A DNA stretch of 63,367 bases, counting the filler, from Anaerolineae bacterium (GTDB lineage: Bacteria; Chloroflexota; Anaerolineae; Epilineales; Epilineaceae), in assembly GCA_029262755.1 (NCBI GenBank). It is 8 parts of 8 records of this genome, joined end to end, with 100 filler letters (N's around TTAATTAATTAA, not from the genome) between each part and the next. Parts side by side here need not be neighbours in the genome. Positions count along the whole stretch, not along the records: positions 51,438 to 54,299 come from JAJCYU010000203.1; 7 more parts are not named here. The stretch is one strand, 5' to 3'. The notes below the pieces were generated by a model, which made no database searches, was not told the DNA's origin, and worked only from the letters and a program-made list of their open reading frames with translations. Made by a program: the position numbers and the translations under genes. Positions 47,975 to 57,010 of this stretch are shown piece after piece (the stretch's first letter is position 1; each line of letters begins with the position of its first letter).

Positions 47975-50137
47975 CTAGTCCTGGGCCCAGGCGAGGCCGA
48001 TCCGGCCTCGATCCGGCTCCACGGAGAGGACCAGGACGTCGATGACGTCGCCCACGGATAGGTCGTGCAGGTGGCGGCCGCGGCCGACGTTGCTGCGGTG
48101 CACGAGGCCGTCCTGACCGACGCCGATGTCGACGAATGCGCCGAAGTCCACGACGTTGCGCACGGTGCCGGGTATGCGGGCGCCGACGGGCAGTTCGGCG
48201 ATCGACATGGCCTCGCCGCGCAGGAGTGGCGCCGGCGCATCCTCGCGCGGATCACGGCCGGGACGGATGAGCTGGTCGAGGATGTCGTCGAGCGTCGGGC
48301 GGCCGACGCCCAGGTCCGCGGCGAGCGCGTCTGGCGGGCGCTGCGCGACGAGGCCTTCGAGTGCGGGAGCGCGCTCGGCGGGGGGCGGGGGATCGCGGGG
48401 GTCTAGGCCTGCACGGCGCAGGAGCGCGCGTGCGGGCTCGTAGCTCTCCGGGTGGATCGCGCTGGCGTCGAGCGGCTCCGCGCCGAGCACGCGTACGAAC
48501 CCCGCGGCTTGCTCGAAGGTCTTGGGGCCGAGCCCGGCAACCGCGAGGAGGTCGCGCCGGCGTGCGAAGCGGCCCTGCGCGTCGCGGTGGGTGACGATCG
48601 CGTCGGCGAGCTTGGGGCCAAGGCCGGCAATGCGTTGGAGCAGCGCGGGCGAGGCCGTGTTCAGGTCCGCGCCGACGGCGTTGACGACGTCTTCGACGAC
48701 ACCGTCTAGGGTGCGGGCCAGCTCGTTCTCGTCGAGATCATGCTGGTAGAGGCCGACGCCGATGCTCTGCGGATCGATCTTGACCAGCTCCGCCAGCGGG
48801 TCCTGGATGCGACGTGCGATGGACACGGCGCCGCGCAGCGTCACGTCCATGTCCGGCAGCTCTTTCCCGGCCAAGGGGCTGGCGCTGTAGATGCTGGCAC
48901 CGGCCTCGTTGACAACCGCGTAGCGGATCTCCGTGTCGAGCTTGGGCAGGAGAGCGGCGATGAACGTCTCTGTTTCGCGCGAGGCCGTTCCGTTGCCGAT
49001 CGCGATCAACGTGGCGGCGTGCGTGCGCACGAGGCGCGCGATGGTTGCGCGAGCCGCGTCTGCCTGGTGCTGGGGCGCATGCGGATAGATCACGTCCGTG
49101 GCCAGCACGGCGCCGGTTGCGTCGATCACGGCCAGCTTGCAGCCCGTACGGTAGGCCGGATCCACCCCGAGGACGACGTGCCCGGTGAGCGGCTGCAGGC
49201 GCAGGAGCGCGGCAAGGTTGCGTGCGAAGACCTCTCGGGCGTGGGTGTGGGCCTCTTCGGTGAGCCCGCGGCGCAGGTCGCGGGCGATCGCGGGGCGCAG
49301 AAGGCGGGTGTCGGCGTCCGCGATGGCCGCGCTCAGCTCGCCGGACCAGGCGGAGCGGCGGTCGGGCGTGAACCGAAGGCCGATCGCGGTCAGCGCGTCG
49401 CGTTCGGGGATGTCGAGCGCCACGCGCAGGACCTTTTCGGCCTCGCCGCGATCGATGGCCAGCGTCTGGTGTGGGCGGAGACGGTCGATGCGTTGGCTCA
49501 TGTCGTAGTAGGCGGAGAAGACCTCCTTCGGGTCTTCGCCTGCCGTCTTCCCGCCACGACGCTTCACGCGCAGCGTCGCCCATGTCGCGGCTTTGGCGCG
49601 TAGGGCCTGACGTACGTCGGGATCGTCCGCGATCCGTTCCGCGACGATGTCGCGCGCACCGGCTAGCGCCGTGTCGGCATCCGGGACGTCGGGGCCGAGG
49701 AAGGATTGCGCGCGGGCGTGGGGTGGGAGGCCGGAGGGGGGCTGGGCGAGGATCGCTTCGGCCAAGGGCTCGAGGCCCAGCTCGCGTGCCATCGTGGCGC
49801 GCGTCCGCCGGCGAGGGCGATAGGGCGCGTACAGGTCTTCCAGCGTGGTGCGGCTGGTTGCGTTTTGGACGGCGCGCGCGAGCTCATCGGTGAGGACGGC
49901 CTGCTCTTGGAGTGAGGCGAGGATGGCAGCGCGACGGTCTTCCAGCGTGCGCAGGCGCTCGTGGCCCTCGGCGATCGCGCGGAGCGCGATCTCGTCGAGA
50001 CCTTCGGTGGCCTCCATGCGATAGCGGGCCACGAACGGGATCGTGTGGCCTTCGTCGAACAGGGCAACGGCTCGGGCGACGCGCGAAGGCGACAGCTTCA
50101 GTTCGGACGCGAGTCGCTCGGAAATGGAGGTGGGCAT
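47975..50137 (-). CDS. tex: Tex family transcription accessory protein (YqgF-like, HhH and S1 domains)
   Basis: TIPFVARYRME, LGVDPAYRTGCKLA, IGNGTASRET, ELVKIDPQSIGVGLYQHD and S1 motif NVVDFGAFVDIGV. Confidence 0.95.
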   Translation of the reverse strand: MPTSISERLASELKLSPSRVARAVALFDEGHTIPFVARYRMEATEGLDEIALRAIAEGHERLRTLEDRRAAILASLQEQAVLTDELARAVQNATSRTTLEDLYAPYRPRRRTRATMARELGLEPLAEAILAQPPSGLPPHARAQSFLGPDVPDADTALAGARDIVAERIADDPDVRQALRAKAATWATLRVKRRGGKTAGEDPKEVFSAYYDMSQRIDRLRPHQTLAIDRGEAEKVLRVALDIPERDALTAIGLRFTPDRRSAWSGELSAAIADADTRLLRPAIARDLRRGLTEEAHTHAREVFARNLAALLRLQPLTGHVVLGVDPAYRTGCKLAVIDATGAVLATDVIYPHAPQHQADAARATIARLVRTHAATLIAIGNGTASRETETFIAALLPKLDTEIRYAVVNEAGASIYSASPLAGKELPDMDVTLRGAVSIARRIQDPLAELVKIDPQSIGVGLYQHDLDENELARTLDGVVEDVVNAVGADLNTASPALLQRIAGLGPKLADAIVTHRDAQGRFARRRDLLAVAGLGPKTFEQAAGFVRVLGAEPLDASAIHPESYEPARALLRRAGLDPRDPPPPAERAPALEGLVAQRPPDALAADLGVGRPTLDDILDQLIRPGRDPREDAPAPLLRGEAMSIAELPVGARIPGTVRNVVDFGAFVDIGVGQDGLVHRSNVGRGRHLHDLSVGDVIDVLVLSVEPDRGRIGLAWAQD

Positions 50138-50202: not shown

Positions 50203-50381
50203 GCAACGGGCTGCGCCCTGCCCCGCTGGTCGACGCATGCGAGCGCAAATTGTAAGTGCTTCGCGGATCGCATGTGCGCTCTTGATTGAAGCCTTGGAGC
50301 GATCAGCGTTGTGTCGCGCATCGTCCCGCGATCCCCGGGCGCGGACCTCCATCCTACCCGCCTGACGCAAGGAGATCCCCC

Positions 50382-50747
50382 ATGGCGAGTTCCCTGAATT
50401 GGTTCGAGATTCCCACGAAAGACCTCAACCGCGCGGCCGAATTCTACCGCACGGTCTTGGGGGCCGAGCTTCCGATCATCGACGTCGGCACGGAGAAGAT
50501 CGCCATGTTCCCCGTCGACCAGGGCGGTATCGGCGGTGCGTTGTGCAGCCGCGACGGAATGGAGCCGGCGACGGAAGGCACGTTCGTCTACCTCAACGGC
50601 GGCAACGACTTGGCGGGACCATTGTCGCGCGTCGCGGCAGCGGGCGGCACGGTGCTGGCCGAGAAGACCGACATCGGTGACAACGGCTTCATCGCGGTCT
50701 TCCTCGACACGGAAGGCAACAAGGTGGGGCTGCACTCGATGGGGTGA
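50382..50747 (+). CDS. VOC family (glyoxalase/bleomycin-resistance) protein
   Basis: NWFEIPTKDLNRAAEFY...AAGGTVL...FLDTEGNKVGLH; AAGGAG SD. Confidence 0.92.
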   Translation: MASSLNWFEIPTKDLNRAAEFYRTVLGAELPIIDVGTEKIAMFPVDQGGIGGALCSRDGMEPATEGTFVYLNGGNDLAGPLSRVAAAGGTVLAEKTDIGDNGFIAVFLDTEGNKVGLHSMG

Positions 50748-51337: not shown

Positions 51338-51437
51338 NNNNNNNNNNNNNNNNNNNNNNNNNNNNNNNNNNNNNNNNNNNNTTAATTAATTAANNNNNNN
51401 NNNNNNNNNNNNNNNNNNNNNNNNNNNNNNNNNNNNN

Positions 51438-52988
51438 GACCTGCTGGACCAGCAGCGCCAGGAAGTAGGGCGTGCGCAGGAGTTCCAGGGTCGGTGTGCC
51501 GGCGATCTGTCGCCAGATCTCGGTTGCCCGCTCCGGGTTGTACAGCGCCAGAAACTGCTGCACGCGGCGGTCGTCGAAGGCCTCGACGCGGACCTGCGGC
51601 ACGCGCAGCGAAGGGGTCGACAGCGGCGCGCTGTAGTCCAGGCTGCGACAGCTGAAGACCGCCTGGTTGCCCGGCCGACGCCGGATGACTTCCTGCAAGG
51701 CGCCGCGCCAGGCTTCGACCTTGTGCCGGTACTCAGCGTCATCCGCGTGCGGCATCTCGTTGAGGCCGTCGAGCAGCAGCACGAGCCGGCCGGCGTCGAT
51801 GAAGGTCTCGAGTGACGGCAGTTGTGGATAGCGACGGCGCCACAATTCGGCGAGCCAGGCCAGGGGTGGTGGCGCCGCCCCGCCCATGTCGCCGGCGCGG
51901 TAGCTGTTGAGCGGCACGAAGAGGGTGACCGGTCCGTCGTGCTCGTCGCTCCGGCGCAGCGCGTCCGAGCAGATGCTCAGCTCCAGGTAGCGCAGCAGGG
52001 TGCTCTTGCCGCTGCCCGGCGGGCCGAGCACGACCAGCACCCGGTGCTCACCGTCGGCCAGGATGCCGGACAGGCTCTCGTGCCGCTCCGATTCGGCGAC
52101 CCACCGTTCGCCTGCCACCTGCTCGCCCTTGTCCATCAGCAGGCTCAGGCTCACGAAGCGCGTGTCGATCTGGTAGCGCGGCTGCGACCACTCCGCGATA
52201 CGCCCCAGGCGCTGCGCGTCCAGATCGGCCGGGTCGGCGTGGGCCATCGTTGCCAGCTCGCTCGGGCGCAGCTTGACCTCGGCCTCCGTCCCCTCAACGC
52301 CGCGGCGCAGCAGGTCGGCGATCGCCACCAGATCGCGCGGCCCCGAATCGTCCGGCGCGCCCTCCGCCACGAGCCCCACACGCAGCGGAGGTCGGCCAAG
52401 GGAGGAGATCGGGCGATCGACGTCCGGCAGTCCGTCCGCGACGGCGCGCACGAGCGGCTCGGGCGCGCTCAGGTCCTTGAGCCAATGCTCGCCGCAATCG
52501 TGGATGGTCACGCCGGCAGGCAGCGCGTCGCCGATCTCGGCCATCGTCGTCTGTGAGACGAGCACCTGGCCGCCGTGGCCGGCGCCCGCGATGCGCGCGG
52601 CGCGATGGATCTCGAAGCCCGCGTAGTCCTCGTCGAAGCGCGTTACCTCGCCGCTGTGCAGCCCCATGCGTACCAGGAGCAGCTCGCCGTGCGGCCAGTC
52701 GTGGCCGTAGAGCGCGCGCTGTCCGTCCGTCGCGCCTGCCAGGGCGTCGGCCGCGTCTTGGAAGACGTAGAAGAAGGCGTCGCCCATCGTGCGCACCTCG
52801 ACGCCGCCACGTCCGCGAAAGGCGCCGCGCAAGAGCCGGTTGTGATGATCGAGGACCTCAGGAAACTGCGGCCCCAAGCGCTTGACCAACTCGGTCGAGC
52901 CCTCGATGTCGGTAAACAGGATCGTAAGCCGACCCTCGGGCAGGTCCCTCAAGCCGGAAGCTCCCGTGCGCGGCGGCGGTAGGTGCAC
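51438..52988 (-). CDS. Class III adenylate/guanylate cyclase domain fused to a NACHT NTPase, 3' end truncated by gap
   Basis: TILFTDIEGST, MGDAFF, RMGLHSGE and HRAARI in the cyclase; Walker A VLGPPGSGKST, Walker B LLLDGLNEM, FSCR and ELLRTPYFL in the NACHT domain. Confidence 0.88.
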
Positions 52989-53039
52989 CGCGGTAGGCGA
53001 CGTGCGGAGTGGCGCCGTATGTATGCCGCCGGGCGACGC

Positions 53040-54299
53040 CTACTGCGATTCGGCATAGGGCATGTAGATGCGCGCCACCGGCTCGGTCGGCGGGGTGCTG
53101 TCGGGGATCGCGGTGGGCTGGGCGCTTGGAATCGCGCTCGGCTGGGCGGAGGGCATCGCGCTCGGCTGCGCGCTCGGCTGTGCGGAGGGCTCGGCGCTCG
53201 GAACCGCGCTCGGGACGGGCGTCGCGGGGGTCGTCGGGACGGCGGTCGGCTGGGTTTCGCCGGAGCCGGGGTTGCCGTACCAGCAGAGCGTGCCTGCGAT
53301 GCTGTTCTGGGTGAACTCCGATGCGATGAAGTCGATGTCGCCGTCCTTGTCCACATCCGCCATGTCGATGGAGTTCCACTTGTGGTCCTTGCTCCTCGAG
53401 TGCTGCATCGAGGTCGGATTTCGTACGAGGTCGGTGCCGTCGCCCGGGTTTAGCCACGCGAAGACGTTGTAGGGCCGCGCGCCGTCCTGGCTCGTGACGA
53501 GGATGTCGAGGTCGCCGTCGCCGTCGACGTCGCCCATGGTCAGGTCGCGCACGTCCGGCTCGCGGCCGTCACCGGCGCGCTCGAAGATGCGGTCGTCGCC
53601 GTCGATGCGCTGCAGCCACCAGGAGATGGAGTCGCCCGTCTTGTCCGTGGCCGTCGCGAGGTCGAGTAGGCCGTCTCCGTTGAGGTCGCCGCTCGTCACC
53701 GCGACGATCTGGCGTGCTTCGCTGCCGGTGAGAAGGTTTGTTGCGCGTCCTAGGTCGATGTCACCGGTGGCGCCTTCGCTCGGGTACCAGGTCACGTCCC
53801 TGCCGTCGCGCACCACGAGCAGGTCGTCGTGCAGGTCGCCGGAGTCCGCGTCGATGTTGGCGGCGTGAACGTAGCCCGCGCCCGAATAGACGCGGCCTCC
53901 GCTCTTGCGCCGATCAAATTTTGCCTCGCCCCCCTCGTTCAGCCACGCGCTGACGTTGCCGTTGGGCTCAACGGTGAGGATGTCGGCATGCGAATCGCCG
54001 TCGAAATCGCCGACTGCAAGCAAGAGATCTGGGTCGCGCGACGCGCCGCGCACGTCGATCTCCGCGGAGAACTTCGTCGCAGGTCCCTTGCCCGGATCCG
54101 GGTCCATCTGGCGCCACCACTTGAGCTTTTGCTCGATCACGACCCCGGTCCCACGATCGTAAACCGCCTCAAGACCCACAAAGTCCACGCGCTCGTCGGC
54201 GTCGAGATCGTCCCCGCGCACGAAGTCGACGCCGGGCGCGGGGATCACGTCGTTGCGCTCGAAGGGTTGGGGGCCGGCGTGGTCGGCGAGATCGGCGGC
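53040..54299 (-). CDS. FG-GAP/VCBS repeat protein with PSAx linker and IYMPY tail, 5' end truncated by gap
   Basis: GDFDGDSHADI, GDLNGDGLLDL, GDVDGDGDLDI and ADVDKDGDIDF; the frame stays open to the gap. Confidence 0.85.
   Translation of the reverse strand, partial: AADLADHAGPQPFERNDVIPAPGVDFVRGDDLDADERVDFVGLEAVYDRGTGVVIEQKLKWWRQMDPDPGKGPATKFSAEIDVRGASRDPDLLLAVGDFDGDSHADILTVEPNGNVSAWLNEGGEAKFDRRKSGGRVYSGAGYVHAANIDADSGDLHDDLLVVRDGRDVTWYPSEGATGDIDLGRATNLLTGSEARQIVAVTSGDLNGDGLLDLATATDKTGDSISWWLQRIDGDDRIFERAGDGREPDVRDLTMGDVDGDGDLDILVTSQDGARPYNVFAWLNPGDGTDLVRNPTSMQHSRSKDHKWNSIDMADVDKDGDIDFIASEFTQNSIAGTLCWYGNPGSGETQPTAVPTTPATPVPSAVPSAEPSAQPSAQPSAMPSAQPSAIPSAQPTAIPDSTPPTEPVARIYMPYAESQ
53110..53217 (-). 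repeat. 12-bp coding tandem repeat (about nine P-S/T-A-x units)
   Basis: Encodes VPSAVPSAEPSAQPSAQPSAMPSAQPSAIPSAQPTA. Confidence 0.85.
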
Positions 54300-54399: not shown

Positions 54400-54615
54400 T
54401 CCCACCGTGTCGTGCTCTCCCTCTTCGAGTTCAGCGAGTTTTCGGCTCCCGAAGTCGGTCACGTGCTCGGCATCAACGCGGCCGCGGCACGCAAGCGTCG
54501 TCAACGCGCGAGGGAAGCGCTTGCGCGTGTGCTCAAAGGCGAGGTGCGCGCGCTGCGGCGTACGAAAGCACGCTCCGAACCGAGCTCGGCTGTGAACGGG
54601 GAGGGGCGATCATGA
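54400..54615 (+). CDS. ECF sigma factor, region 4 fragment
   Basis: HRVVLSLFEFSEFSAPEVGHVLGINAAAARKRRQRAREAL; ATGA-coupled to a zinc-finger anti-sigma gene. Confidence 0.78.
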   Translation, partial: SHRVVLSLFEFSEFSAPEVGHVLGINAAAARKRRQRAREALARVLKGEVRALRRTKARSEPSSAVNGEGRS

Positions 54616-55889
54616 ACTGTCAACAAATACGGCGGCTGATGCCCGCAAACCGCTATGCGCGCCTCGTCCCCACGGCCCTGGCCGCCTTCGAGCAACACGT
54701 CGATGGCTGTCCCACCTGTGCATCCGCTTGGCTGGACGAGCAGTTCGTCGATGCACACCTTTCCGCGTTGCCCATCCCGGAGCCGCCGGGGGGATTGAAA
54801 GCCGCGTTGCTTGCCGTTCCGCGCTCCGCCGCCGCACCGTCTTCGACGGCACGCAACGAACGGGCCGTCGCCACACAAGACGCGCCCATGACCCTTTCGG
54901 AGTGGCTGCGCACCTTCGTGGTCTTGTTGGCGCTTGGGCTCCTCGGCGGCGGTTTCGCCGGCGAGAGCCGACGCGCAACGAACGTGCCGATCTCGCCGGA
55001 GACCGTCGCGCCGCTGTCCGGCGCCGGGCCGACGATCATCGCGCGTCAAGGGCAGGTAGATCTCTCCGTTCCTGCTGCGGAGCAGGCGGCGATCGTCTCT
55101 CGCGTCGACCGATCCGCTCCCAGCGACACCTTCGTAACGCCACCTCGAGCCGCCACCCTCACACCCGAGGCGTTGGCCCTGGCAATTGTCCCAGAGCTCG
55201 TGCAGGAAGCCGCGCCCCTTGACGCGCCGCGCCGCAACGAAGGACGCCGTTCGTCGAGCGATAACGATGATGAGCCGGCCACGGAGCCCGCGCCGCCGAC
55301 TGACACAGCGAACGCGCCGAACGTACCGGTCGCCGGACAGGATCGCGGTGGGAAGGACGGCGGCATGGTGGGCGCGCGCCCCGATCCCGTCTCGCCCACG
55401 GAACCGCCGGACGATGAGGCGCCCTGGCCAACGGCGCACGCTCGCGTGCCCATCGTCGTCTTCGCCGACGTCGGCGGCGTCCCGGCCTTCGGCTGCCGCG
55501 GCTGCGACGGTCATCTATCGCAATCCGACCGGGACATTGCGGCCTCGGAGGGCCTCGTGCTCCCGCCCTTCCAGATCGCGATCTCCGACAGCGCCAGCCG
55601 TGTATACGAGTTCAGCTTCGTGCCGGACGGCCCTGTATTCAGCGCGACGCTGGACATCGAAGGGGTCGCGCCCTTCCAGGCAACGCTCTACGTGCAGTCG
55701 GAAACGTGGCTGCCCTGCGCCAACGTCGATGCGCGCTCCCATAGCTTCGTGGTTCCGCTCGCCGGCGCGCTGCGCTTCCCCGTCGTCGATCAATGTCCTG
55801 CGCCGGTCGGGCCGGAGCCGGAACCGGAGCCCTTGCCGACCGCATGGTCGCCGGGCGAAGGCTCCCCGGCGGGAACGGCGCGCCCTTGA
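54612..55889 (+). CDS. zf-HC2 (ZAS) anti-sigma factor with TM helix and extracytoplasmic Cys-containing domain
   Basis: MNCQQIRRLM...FEQHVDGCPTC (HxxxCxxC) and TM segment FVVLLALGLLGGG. Confidence 0.78.
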   Translation: MNCQQIRRLMPANRYARLVPTALAAFEQHVDGCPTCASAWLDEQFVDAHLSALPIPEPPGGLKAALLAVPRSAAAPSSTARNERAVATQDAPMTLSEWLRTFVVLLALGLLGGGFAGESRRATNVPISPETVAPLSGAGPTIIARQGQVDLSVPAAEQAAIVSRVDRSAPSDTFVTPPRAATLTPEALALAIVPELVQEAAPLDAPRRNEGRRSSSDNDDEPATEPAPPTDTANAPNVPVAGQDRGGKDGGMVGARPDPVSPTEPPDDEAPWPTAHARVPIVVFADVGGVPAFGCRGCDGHLSQSDRDIAASEGLVLPPFQIAISDSASRVYEFSFVPDGPVFSATLDIEGVAPFQATLYVQSETWLPCANVDARSHSFVVPLAGALRFPVVDQCPAPVGPEPEPEPLPTAWSPGEGSPAGTARP

Positions 55890-57010
55890 GCGCGGCGCGA
55901 GCCGCTCGTGCCCACGTCGGTGCCTCGAGCACCCGTCGTGGCGTGCTGTTGTTCCTCGCCGTCCTCTGCGCATTGCTGTTCACCGTGCAACCGGACAAGG
56001 CCCTGGCCGAAGGGTGTCGCGCGGAAGGTATTGCCACGCTCTCTTCGAAGCTGGTCTGTCCCTACCAACCCGTCGAGCTTCGTTGGGCGATTCGGCTCAG
56101 CTGTGACGAAGGCATCGCGCCGAGTTGCGTGCGCACCGTCCGTCTCGTGGATGCGCTGCCCGAGGGCATCGTGGCATGGCGCACCGATACGAACGGCGCG
56201 GAGCCGGACATCGGCGACGACTGGACGCTCGAGTTCACCGACGGTTTCGGTGAGGCGCTCGAGACCTCCCGTCGCGTCGTGGCCGTCCGCGGCGGAACGT
56301 TCGCCCTGGGCGGAGCGGACATCACCGTGGAGGACGAGTCCGGGCAGACGATCAACACCTCGCTGCCGCCACAGCAGCTCACCGTCGTCCCACAATGTCC
56401 TCGCTGGGGTACGGTGCCCATCTTCCTGCCGATCATGCACCGCCCGAGCTGTCTCCCCAGCGCCGAGCCCGCCGATATCGTGCTGGCCATCGACCGCTCA
56501 GCCAGCGTCGGCGGTGACGGGCTCGCGGCCATCGGCCAACACGTTCGTGTGTTGCTCGACACATTGGATCACAGACCAGGCGAAGACCGCGTCGGCCTCG
56601 TGGCCTTCGACCGACGGGCGGTGACCCTCGCCCCGCTCGGTACGACACCCGCGTTGCTCGATCTGGCGTTGCGCGAGCTACAGCCCCACCACGGCACACG
56701 GCTCGAACATGGCATCGCCGAAGGCGTTCGCGCCCTCGGCCCCACCATCGACGGGCGTCGCCGCATCCTCGTGCTCATCACGGATGGGGTGGCCATCGGC
56801 ATGGGCGGCAACGAGGCGGCCCATACGGCGGCTCGCGACGCGCGCGAGGCCGACGTACGCATCCTGGCCATGGGGATCGGCCCGGCGCCGGACTGGCGGC
56901 TGCTGAACGCCCTCCAAGAGCCGGGATCACCCCGCATCGCCGCCACGAGTTCGGCGGCGCTACCCGCCGCGTTCCGCGGCCTTTCCACTGCAACGAGTTG
57001 CGTCCGCTAA
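55886..57010 (+). CDS. Exported VWA-domain protein
   Basis: Signal peptide, internal IFLPIMHR, and MIDAS residues DRSAS, GTRL and LITDG; the TTG start overlaps the anti-sigma stop. Confidence 0.82.
   Translation: MSAARAARAHVGASSTRRGVLLFLAVLCALLFTVQPDKALAEGCRAEGIATLSSKLVCPYQPVELRWAIRLSCDEGIAPSCVRTVRLVDALPEGIVAWRTDTNGAEPDIGDDWTLEFTDGFGEALETSRRVVAVRGGTFALGGADITVEDESGQTINTSLPPQQLTVVPQCPRWGTVPIFLPIMHRPSCLPSAEPADIVLAIDRSASVGGDGLAAIGQHVRVLLDTLDHRPGEDRVGLVAFDRRAVTLAPLGTTPALLDLALRELQPHHGTRLEHGIAEGVRALGPTIDGRRRILVLITDGVAIGMGGNEAAHTAARDAREADVRILAMGIGPAPDWRLLNALQEPGSPRIAATSSAALPAAFRGLSTATSCVR

Follow-up and report, generated by a model that had tools for sequence, protein, structure and literature searches.

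A cyclase–NACHT–FGE-sulfatase protein of a Chloroflexota bacterium as a candidate single-chain NLR-like sensor

Proteins that join a cyclic mononucleotide (cNMP) cyclase to a STAND NTPase are already in print as predicted immune sensors and as a likely arm of nucleotide-based immunity, and the interpretation is not original to this study. Among the domains of bacterial NACHT proteins, Kibby et al. list a cNMP cyclase as a 'nucleotide-signal-generating' effector, and they name the FGE-sulfatase domain (FGS) as one of two C-termini of the antigen-receptor type (10.1101/2022.07.19.500537). A 2026 preprint on Pucsar places cNMP cyclases fused to NACHT and AP-ATPase in an 'Immune clade 1' that awaits characterisation (10.64898/2026.08.12.744502). 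Kaur et al. 2021 described STAND-FGS counter-invader systems that are widespread, exchange their N-terminal effectors and are often linked to diversity-generating retroelements (DGRs) (PMC8195603), and Kaur et al. 2020 counted cNMP cyclases among the common generators of signals in the conflict systems that multicellular bacteria encode (PMC7159879). In the stand-alone cCMP synthase EaPycC, specificity for CTP is assigned to F100, R142 and Q144, and metal binding to Asp 102 and 146 (PMC11224242). Here we describe a gene encoding a class III cyclase followed by a NACHT domain, located in a window (the whole stretch of DNA analysed, 63,367 nucleotides including filler) taken from an uncultured Anaerolineae bacterium (GCA_029262755.1), a Caldilineae-type Chloroflexota genome of 5.06 Mb in 428 contigs, 84% complete.

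The chances are about even, in our judgement, that this gene encodes a single-chain STAND/NLR-like sensor with a role in conflict or immunity, that is, in the sensing of phage or another invader. A trigger would be bound by the C-terminal, C-type-lectin-like FGS domain; the NACHT NTPase would then exchange its nucleotide and oligomerise, and oligomerisation would bring the tethered N-terminal cyclase domains together. Class III cyclases are obligate dimers, with their active sites at the dimer interface. Once paired, the cyclases would produce a 3',5'-cyclic mononucleotide, to be read in trans by cNMP-binding proteins encoded elsewhere in the genome. Each step of this proposal, from ligand binding by the FGS domain through oligomerisation and proximity activation to the product, is inferred from anatomy, namely from the STAND/NLR layout, the flexible tether of the cyclase and the presence of a TIR domain on the same N-terminal arm in four sister proteins; the immune role is likewise an inference. 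TIR domains of other NLRs are activated by induced proximity.

What the present analysis adds to the published predictions is the recovered full gene, an expansion that in the searched sample is restricted to one Chloroflexota family, the observation that neither a linked receptor nor a defence island is present at the examined loci, and a coordinated change of substrate residues, through which one genome comes to hold three or four active-site types.

The full-length protein

The window consists of 8 contigs of a metagenome-assembled genome (MAG), joined by 7 artificial spacers (N run, TTAATTAATTAA, N run). It is therefore not contiguous DNA, and gene neighbourhoods are not readable across the spacers. 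The gene lies on the shortest of the 8 contigs, C203 (2,862 bp, window 51438-54299), on whose minus strand an open frame of 517 codons begins at 52988 and is still open where the contig stops, at 51438. Every motif quoted in the original prediction was found on this strand (FTDIEGS, EVRTMGDA, IHRAAR, GPPGSGKST and LLLDGLNE). The interval given there, 51438..52988, stands as an open frame, but the real start is probably 12 codons further in, at the TTG at 52952 rather than at the GTG at 52988. The N-termini of the five nearest relatives, all of the form M/V-R/K-D/N-LPEG, are level with this TTG, and a GGGAG motif is located 8 nt 5' of it. Residue numbers in the text and in Table 1 (Asp27, Arg66 and so on) are counted from the GTG at 52988.

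The C-terminal sensor had been thought lost in a gap, but the gap is a contig-joint spacer, and the sensor is present on another contig of the same assembly. The closest full-length relatives, L022 (genome G011, 64% identity) and L023 (genome G001, 63%), extend over about 1,127-1,130 codons from stop to stop, with gene calls of 1,107-1,115 aa, and both have an FGE-sulfatase domain at the C-terminus. With the C-terminal 605 residues of L022 as the query, a search of the genome itself retrieved a 607-codon frame running off a contig end (G000:C74:2730-4550(-), outside the window). Its identity to L022 is 65%, matching that of the N-terminal part. The C203 frame finishes in ..LLVQQV and the C74 frame opens with VAETGEV.., while both orthologs read ..LLVxQVAETGxLP.. 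over the junction; the two contig ends have only 3 nt, a Val codon, in common. Given this perfect in-frame abutment, with no assembled junction, and relatives of 1,107-1,115 aa, C74 appears to carry the missing 606 residues of a protein of ~1,111 aa. Another candidate, contig C177, overlaps residues 440-517 at 63% identity only and belongs to a different paralog.

The full-length order is thus probably cyclase-NACHT-helical-FGS over ~1,111 aa. Both domains of the predicted fusion exceeded their Pfam cut-offs, at levels well beyond chance, the cyclase (Guanylate_cyc, PF00211, residues 20-150) with 36.8 bits against 21.9 and the NACHT domain (PF05729) with 36.2 bits against 26.7. The C74 part contributes an FGE-sulfatase domain (PF03781, 154.9 bits), which was one of three C-terminal domains guessed beforehand; TPR or HTH domains were not found by Pfam. 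Among solved structures, the C74 part matched EgtB (E 2.6e-30), and also ToxD, PvdO and the Treponema variable protein TvpA. The cyclase, NACHT and FGE-sulfatase domains followed one another in this order in 5/5 relatives scanned. C203 and C74 together display the tripartite STAND layout of N-terminal effector, central NTPase and C-terminal sensor, and, once the two contigs are read together, the locus offers a complete example of the cyclase-NACHT-FGS arrangement.

Because the window protein is divided between two contigs, the model was built for its ortholog P0002 (82% identity), using AlphaFold2 with an 84-row alignment (mean pLDDT 91.0, pTM 0.79). The model is composed of the cyclase (residues 1-175), a tether (187-197, pLDDT <50), a helical/beta module, the NTPase with its helical domains and the C-terminal FGS. 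In Foldseek searches against the PDB, the modelled cyclase superposed on Ma1120 (TM 0.92 over the target, rmsd 2.4 A), the NTPase resembled NLRP3 (9gu4, E 3.5e-10), and the FGS resembled ToxD, EgtB and FGE (E 8e-15 to 1e-10). By analogy with the proteins of Kaur et al. 2021, the FGS domain of the window protein may be a binding-only, lectin-like module. A two-copy complex prediction for cyclase residues 1-185, made from the ortholog alignment, scored 0.00 against a mark of 0.42, and we count it as evidence neither way.

The cyclase active site and its variants

Residues were counted over the window protein and its 120 best database matches (n=121), aligned to the cyclase region of the query; because this sample consists of the best matches to the query, the clade of the window protein is over-represented in it. 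The two metal-binding Asp residues (Asp27 and Asp70) and the transition-state Arg (Arg132) are in place. Both metal-binding Asp are present, as originally predicted, and they are invariant or nearly so across the relatives, as is the Arg (Table 1). In contrast, the canonical Lys/Asp pair with the transition-state Asn is incomplete, as Asp121 is retained but Arg66 and His128 are substitutions. Position 121, which is Asp in adenylyl cyclases, was occupied by D in 106 sequences and by G in 15.

The closest matches of the cyclase part among solved structures were the Ma1120 adenylyl cyclase (E 1.5e-19) and LipJ/Rv1900c (1ybt, E 1.6e-12). In the HMMER alignments, Arg66 lies opposite the substrate Lys of Ma1120 and an Asn of LipJ/Rv1900c, while His128 lies opposite an Ala of Ma1120 and a His of LipJ. 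The predicted assignments of a Lys->Arg and an Asn->His replacement are confirmed by these alignments, and both replacements are clade-specific and conserved. Rv1900c is reportedly active, with N342 and H402 dispensable. For Ma1120, the residues named are K101, D157, A164 and R168, and the introduction of Asn at 164 reduces activity; the same source gives guanylyl cyclases as Glu plus C/S/T/H/A/G, with Cya2 as Glu-Gly (PMC4215837).

When positions 66, 121 and 128 are considered together, the canonical adenylyl-cyclase set Lys/Asp/Asn was found in 96/121 sequences. The remainder comprised Asp/Gly/Asn (11), Arg/Asp/His (6), Ala/Gly/Asn (3) and five singletons. The Arg/Asp/His set of six consists of the window protein together with the five relatives nearest to it, and of no others. 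In a FastTree phylogeny of the 517-residue region they are monophyletic (support 0.998) and nested in a 21-member clade (support 1.0), which contains all of the non-Lys66 members bar one lone His66 sequence. The non-Lys active-site types represent one well-supported clade, in which the substrate-contacting residues change together.

The replacement of two canonical catalytic or specificity residues could mean that the cyclase of this clade is dead and serves only as a dimerising or nucleotide-binding adaptor. Inactive cyclase domains occur in some conflict-system components (Kaur et al. 2020, PMC7159879), and one paralog in the genome itself, on contig C223, lacks the first metal Asp. Against such a loss stand the retention of both metal Asp, Asp121 and Arg132, and the occurrence of His (LipJ) and Ala (Ma1120) at the Asn position of proteins that are both named adenylyl cyclases. 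Moreover, no other part of the protein is as well conserved in this clade as the cyclase: its identity to P0002 is 89.8%, as compared to 80.7% for the NACHT domain and 75.7% for the linker, and its identities to P0003 and P0004 are 70.6% and 74.6%, respectively. This conservation implies that the domain is maintained and not decaying, and a dead cyclase is the least probable of the explanations that we weighed. The catalytic core is retained and, judged from their sequences, the enzymes look active. Given that Lys->Arg and Asn->His are conserved within one clade, there is room for a product other than cAMP.

The genome itself contains 13 matches to the query, 8 of which span the cyclase and NACHT domains (on C203, C218 twice, C60, C30, C328, C277 and C223). 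The window protein thus belongs to a set of at least 8 cyclase-NACHT-FGS paralogs. Pfam detected the cyclase and FGE-sulfatase domains in all 8 proteins, and NACHT in all except that of C328 at the threshold used. A TIR domain precedes the cyclase in four copies (C218b, C223, C277 and C30), so that TIR-cyclase-NACHT-FGS proteins hold two potentially proximity-activated enzymes in tandem on one sensor. The active-site types differ among the copies: the window protein has Arg/Asp/His and C218a has Asp/Gly/Asn, while Lys/Asp/Asn is found in C60, C328, C277, C218b, C30, C36 and C255. In the C223 copy (L031 7833-11726 -), Glu replaces the first metal Asp, and the Lys and Asp positions are occupied by Arg and Ala; this cyclase may be inactive, with the TIR domain still in place. 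The two members on C218 (L027 11084-14449 - and L028 6910-10809 +) lie about 8 kb apart and are of differing active-site type. On C255, a TIR-cyclase-AAA_22-TPR protein of 1,356 aa (L035 6839-10906 -) places the same output arm on another kind of STAND sensor, and its gene adjoins that of a NACHT protein with an unnamed 400-aa N-terminus.

These differences raise the idea that the paralogous NLR-like sensors feed several separate cyclic-nucleotide channels, as a multi-messenger network without operon linkage. Lys/Asp/Asn is of the cAMP type, Asp/Gly/Asn has a Gly like that of Cya2, and Arg/Asp/His has an Arg like that of EaPycC, a pattern that would fit distinct products, although we regard such a network as unlikely. 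If the products did differ (cAMP, cGMP, perhaps cCMP/cUMP), the triggers could be kept apart and read by different, scattered cNMP-binding proteins. With this natural series of active sites in one genome, product specificity and proximity activation are open to direct tests on purified proteins.

Paralogs, genomic context and role

In this filamentous Chloroflexota lineage, the scaffold is expanded into many paralogs with swapped N-terminal outputs. Matches were present in 16/16 other genomes of the family, with 2-35 per genome when NACHT-only matches are included, which makes this Caldilineae-type family a lineage with the scaffold at many copies per genome. Tandem runs were observed on G011:C4 (four copies, at 24, 28, 32 and 43 kb) and on G008:C9 (194-209 kb). 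In the rest of the phylum, 0/250 evenly sampled genomes matched at E<=1e-80, a threshold that leaves out distant fusions, with at most six candidates scored per genome. Of 8,000 candidates scored in a database search, 2,377 proteins reached E<=1e-10. Those with names were annotated as 'SUMF1/EgtB/PvdO family nonheme iron enzyme' and came from Caldilineae, Ardenticatenia/Ardenticatenales or Anaerolineae MAGs. The best 120 of these 2,377 relatives contained PF03781 in 120 cases, PF00211 in 119, PF05729 in 110 and a TIR family in 4.

To characterise the N-terminal slot, we inspected 13 NACHT-FGS copies in relatives, picked because the query match started past the cyclase region. The slot held a cyclase with TCAD9 in 2, TCAD9 alone in 3, BTAD in 1 and a region not named by Pfam in 7. 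TCAD9 takes its name from ternary conflict systems. The relatives with alternative N-termini include L056 (G011:C18, 1757-6499 - and 6999-12038 -) and L058 (2803-7635 +), and the cyclase-TCAD9(APH-like)-NACHT-FGS relatives are two genes in tandem.

The TIR and TCAD9 fusions, the variation in copy number and the tandem arrays all argue for an immune role. A number of observations weigh on the other side: the lack of a defence context, the stable synteny and the ordinary kinds of cNMP reader. As for synteny, the gene is a stable ortholog whose upstream neighbour is conserved in another genus. This neighbour, an FG-GAP repeat protein gene, is the sole other gene on C203 and lies on the same strand, and copies 62-63% identical to it are found directly upstream of the L022 and L023 orthologs. 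The stable orthology and synteny look more like a fixed function than like rapid immune turnover. Downstream on C74, a frame of 850 codons (L038 1-2550 -) is open at the contig end; no Pfam family was detected in it, no counterpart lies beside the orthologs, and weaker paralogs occur on C153, C265 and C135.

The flanks of 10 paralog loci in the genome are housekeeping genes, for example those for sigma-70, DnaK/GrpE, flavodoxin, ABC exporters, TsaD, ribosomal protein L28, cytochrome oxidase assembly and a PhoR/PhoB-type pair. A PIN/Phd pair, a Uma2 nuclease and a WYL regulator each occurred once. PADLOC, applied to 65 neighbour proteins of the 10 loci, matched 6, all of them generic or accessory (a sigma factor, ABC ATPases, CorA, the Uma2 nuclease and the WYL regulator). 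The window protein itself obtained weak, P-loop-level PADLOC matches (best mad8, 2.1e-5), with no match to a Pycsar model, and its NCBIfam score for EruA was 23.9 bits against a cut-off of 1000. Thus neither a defence model match nor a location among defence genes, as in antiphage bNACHT/Avs proteins, was found for it by PADLOC, NCBIfam or the neighbour scans, and no defence island was seen at the paralog loci of this genome.

The FGS is no more diverged among the paralogs than the N-terminal half (47-50% vs 42-50%), and no reverse transcriptase (RVT_1) was found in the 84%-complete genome. The last 300 nt of 13 FGS genes matched paralogs only, mostly at 67-72% identity over 120-300 nt, and a few short stretches (44-82 nt) in paralogs reached 76-84%. 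With no RVT_1 and no template-like repeat copy, diversification of the FGS by a DGR was rejected for this genome at its 84% completeness. The BTAD-NACHT-FGS relative indicates that the scaffold can drive transcription too. In the literature, no functional study of any member was found by a search that had most subscription journals, figures and bioRxiv supplements outside its reach, and the six supplementary files of a 2026 STAND survey (PMC13581612), as far as accessible, contain no mention of cyclase, Guanylate_cyc, PF00211, FGE-sulfatase or Chloroflex.

The cNMP-binding effector sought next to the gene was likewise missing. The genome contains 13 cNMP_binding domain matches in 10 frames, comprising one CRP-like protein, two double-domain CRP-like proteins, one domain-only protein and fusions to NDH-2, aldehyde dehydrogenase, patatin/NTE, MscS, bPH and a methyltransferase. 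At no paralog locus of this genome, the window locus and C74 included, does one of these genes adjoin a family member. The sole near case in the flanks covered is the methyltransferase fusion, which three genes and a distance of 3.9 kb separate from a cyclase fragment at the contig end of C36. In five relatives, 3/32 cNMP_binding matches adjoin a family member, and these three represent one orthologous locus of genus g8 (L050, G015:C6; L051, G013:C4; L052, G007:C30), with the order catalase, cyclase-NACHT-FGS, ECF sigma factor, small cNMP-binding protein and ParA-like ATPase. The cyclase there is partly or not detected by Pfam, and an in-frame TAG is present in 2/3 copies. Being confined to this single locus with a weak cyclase and in-frame TAG codons, the cNMP-binding protein was rejected as a general partner.

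Two cNMP-binding loci of the genome merit separate mention. At L046 (G000:C359, 3619-7924), two double-cNMP-domain CRP-like proteins flank a GT4 glycosyltransferase (GT4-conflict, 35.8 bits). L044 (G000:C155, 244-2565 -) encodes a patatin/NTE-like phospholipase of a widespread family with two cNMP-binding domains, possibly a membrane-damaging reader of cyclic nucleotides.

With no linked receptor gene found, the cyclase could itself be the killing or arresting effector, draining NTPs or flooding the cell with cyclic nucleotide so that no receptor is needed; it occupies the slot that in sister proteins is held by TIR NADases, which are depleting enzymes. This is very unlikely, because the genome has 10 open reading frames with cNMP-binding domains and because the coordinated changes of the substrate residues fit signal identity better than bulk depletion. 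No class III cyclase is known to deplete NTP pools.

A signalling role outside immunity is possible, and it accommodates the context described above. The proteins would then be the lineage's main cAMP-producing intracellular receptors, with the FGS sensing a glycan, peptide or metabolite of endogenous or environmental origin and the cNMP feeding CRP-type regulators, channels and enzymes, in the manner of the mycobacterial cyclase-ATPase-TPR-HTH proteins and the MalT/AfsR-type STAND regulators. STAND proteins account for at least 9 of the genome's 12 Guanylate_cyc matches; of the others, one is a classical sensor cyclase (GAF-GAF-PAS-cyclase, on C373) and two are contig-end fragments. The notion that every cyclase of the genome is STAND-fused was dropped on account of C373. 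The cNMP-binding proteins belong to ordinary regulatory classes (CRP-like, MscS, NDH-2), the flanks are housekeeping genes without a defence island, orthology and synteny are stable across two genera, the AfsR-type BTAD domain is found on the same scaffold, and the g8 copy adjoins an ECF sigma factor and a small cNMP-binding protein. Arguing the opposite way are the TIR domains that precede the cyclase in 4 NACHT-FGS proteins and one AAA-TPR protein of this genome, the conflict-system domain TCAD9 on the same scaffold, the large and variable copy numbers (2-35 per genome) with tandem arrays, like those of immune receptor families, and the published prediction of conflict systems (PMC8195603; 10.64898/2026.08.12.744502). 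On balance we hold non-immune signalling to be a real but less probable explanation.

Since the family is common and lacks an association with defence islands, the defence role loses ground, but the oligomerisation switch does not. Accordingly, the part of the original prediction in which oligomerisation of the NACHT domain would switch on the cyclase is retained as a proposed mechanism, whereas the part that assigned it to defence is weakened without an island or a linked effector. An immune role of the family is plausible. Activation of the cyclase by NACHT oligomerisation, if it occurs, would parallel the activation of TIR domains in NLR resistosomes, with a cyclic mononucleotide as the output. 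Ordinary cAMP signalling by the family would instead caution against taking every STAND fusion for defence.

Table 1. Coordinates along the window of the gene, its domains and key residues, and of the surrounding features (residue counts refer to the 121 aligned proteins)
Feature	Position	Strand	Remarks
5' part of the cyclase-NACHT-FGS gene	51438..52952	-	505 codons from the probable TTG start; truncated at 51438 by the end of C203
12 additional in-frame codons from the upstream GTG	52953..52988	-	probably 5' untranslated region carrying the GGGAG ribosome-binding site
Class III nucleotidyl cyclase catalytic domain	52458..52949	-	residues 14-177; Pfam PF00211
Asp27 (FTDIEGS)	52908..52910	-	first metal-binding Asp; D in 121/121
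Arg66-Thr-Met-Gly-Asp70 (EVRTMGDA)	52779..52793	-	Arg66 replaces the substrate-specifying Lys; Asp70, second metal-binding Asp
Arg66 codon	52791-52793	-	position 66: K 99, D 11, R 6, A 3, T 1, H 1
Asp70 codon	52779-52781	-	D in 119/121
Asp121, His128, Arg132 stretch	52593..52628	-	second substrate-specifying position, transition-state Asn position, transition-state Arg
His128 (IHRAAR)	52605-52607	-	position 128: N 114, H 6, S 1
Arg132 (IHRAAR)	52593-52595	-	R in 121/121
Tether and small helical/beta module between cyclase and NACHT	52074..52418	-	residues 191-305; least conserved part, 75.7% identity to P0002
NACHT NTPase domain	51546..52043	-	residues 316-481; Pfam PF05729
Walker A GPPGSGKST	51999-52025	-	GxPGxGKST invariant, 121/121
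Walker B LLLDGLNE	51756-51779	-	LLLD[A/G]LNE invariant, 121/121
Sensor Arg448 (SCR)	51645-51647	-	invariant, 121/121
FG-GAP/VCBS repeat protein gene with Pro/Thr-rich tail	53040..54299	-	upstream; 5' end cut by the contig end; FG-GAP_3 87.9 bits
Contig joint 3' of the gene	51338..51437		no strand; artificial N run, TTAATTAATTAA, N run
Contig spacers	6595, 29066, 43352, 47128, 51382, 54344, 60190		no strand; not biology
Genes on neighbouring contigs, unrelated	47975-50137, 50286-50747, 54412-55889, 55793-57010	-, +, +, +	Tex-like transcription accessory protein; glyoxalase-fold protein; ECF sigma tail then zf-HC2 anti-sigma factor; VWA protein

Comparison with described systems

Ma1120 and LipJ/Rv1900c are the closest solved relatives of the cyclase domain, and LipJ likewise lacks the Lys and has His at the canonical Asn position. 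They differ in their partners, being fused to nothing or to an alpha/beta-hydrolase, whereas the cyclase of the window is fused to a STAND sensor. With 66.9 bits on the NCBIfam LipJ model, whose cut-off is 800, the window protein does not qualify as a LipJ equivalog.

The likeness to Pycsar and Pucsar lies in the class III fold of the cyclase, in a cyclic mononucleotide as the alarm and in base-contacting residues unlike the Lys/Asp of adenylyl cyclases. In EaPycC, R142 stands four residues before the metal-binding D146, as Arg66 stands four before Asp70 in the window protein, a correspondence by numbering and not by structural alignment. Likewise, F100 of EaPycC stands two residues before the metal Asp 102, and Phe25 and Asp27 of the window protein have the same spacing, with the Phe common to the whole family. 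PycC chains were absent among the PDB sequence matches of the cyclase at E<=0.01. Pycsar cyclases are stand-alone proteins encoded beside the gene of their receptor-effector, a cNMP-binding TIR or TM protein, whereas the window cyclase is fused to its presumed sensor and has no receptor adjacent; on these two grounds the locus falls outside the definition of Pycsar.

Proteins of the Rv0386 type combine an N-terminal class III cyclase with a STAND-type P-loop NTPase and a repeat sensor (TPR, -HTH). It is the TIR-cyclase-AAA_22-TPR protein on C255 that resembles them in this genome; the window protein instead has NACHT and FGS, and no TPR or HTH.

The STAND-FGS systems of Kaur et al. 2021, as represented in the accessible text, likewise join NACHT/STAND to a C-terminal FGS, vary at the N-terminus, occur in several copies per genome and are found preferentially in multicellular bacteria. 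The N-termini listed in that text are TIR, DRHyd, calcineurin, peptidases and kinase/FHA, the cyclase not being among them, and the systems are often DGR-linked, in contrast to the window genome with neither a reverse transcriptase nor a template repeat. As for Immune clade 1 and the NACHT proteins of Kibby et al., the accessible texts do not mention the Arg/Asp/His variant, the several variants per genome or the lack of a linked receptor. They do share with the window protein the order of an N-terminal class III-type cyclase followed by NACHT, the FGS is named there as a C-terminus, and their function, as here, is predicted.

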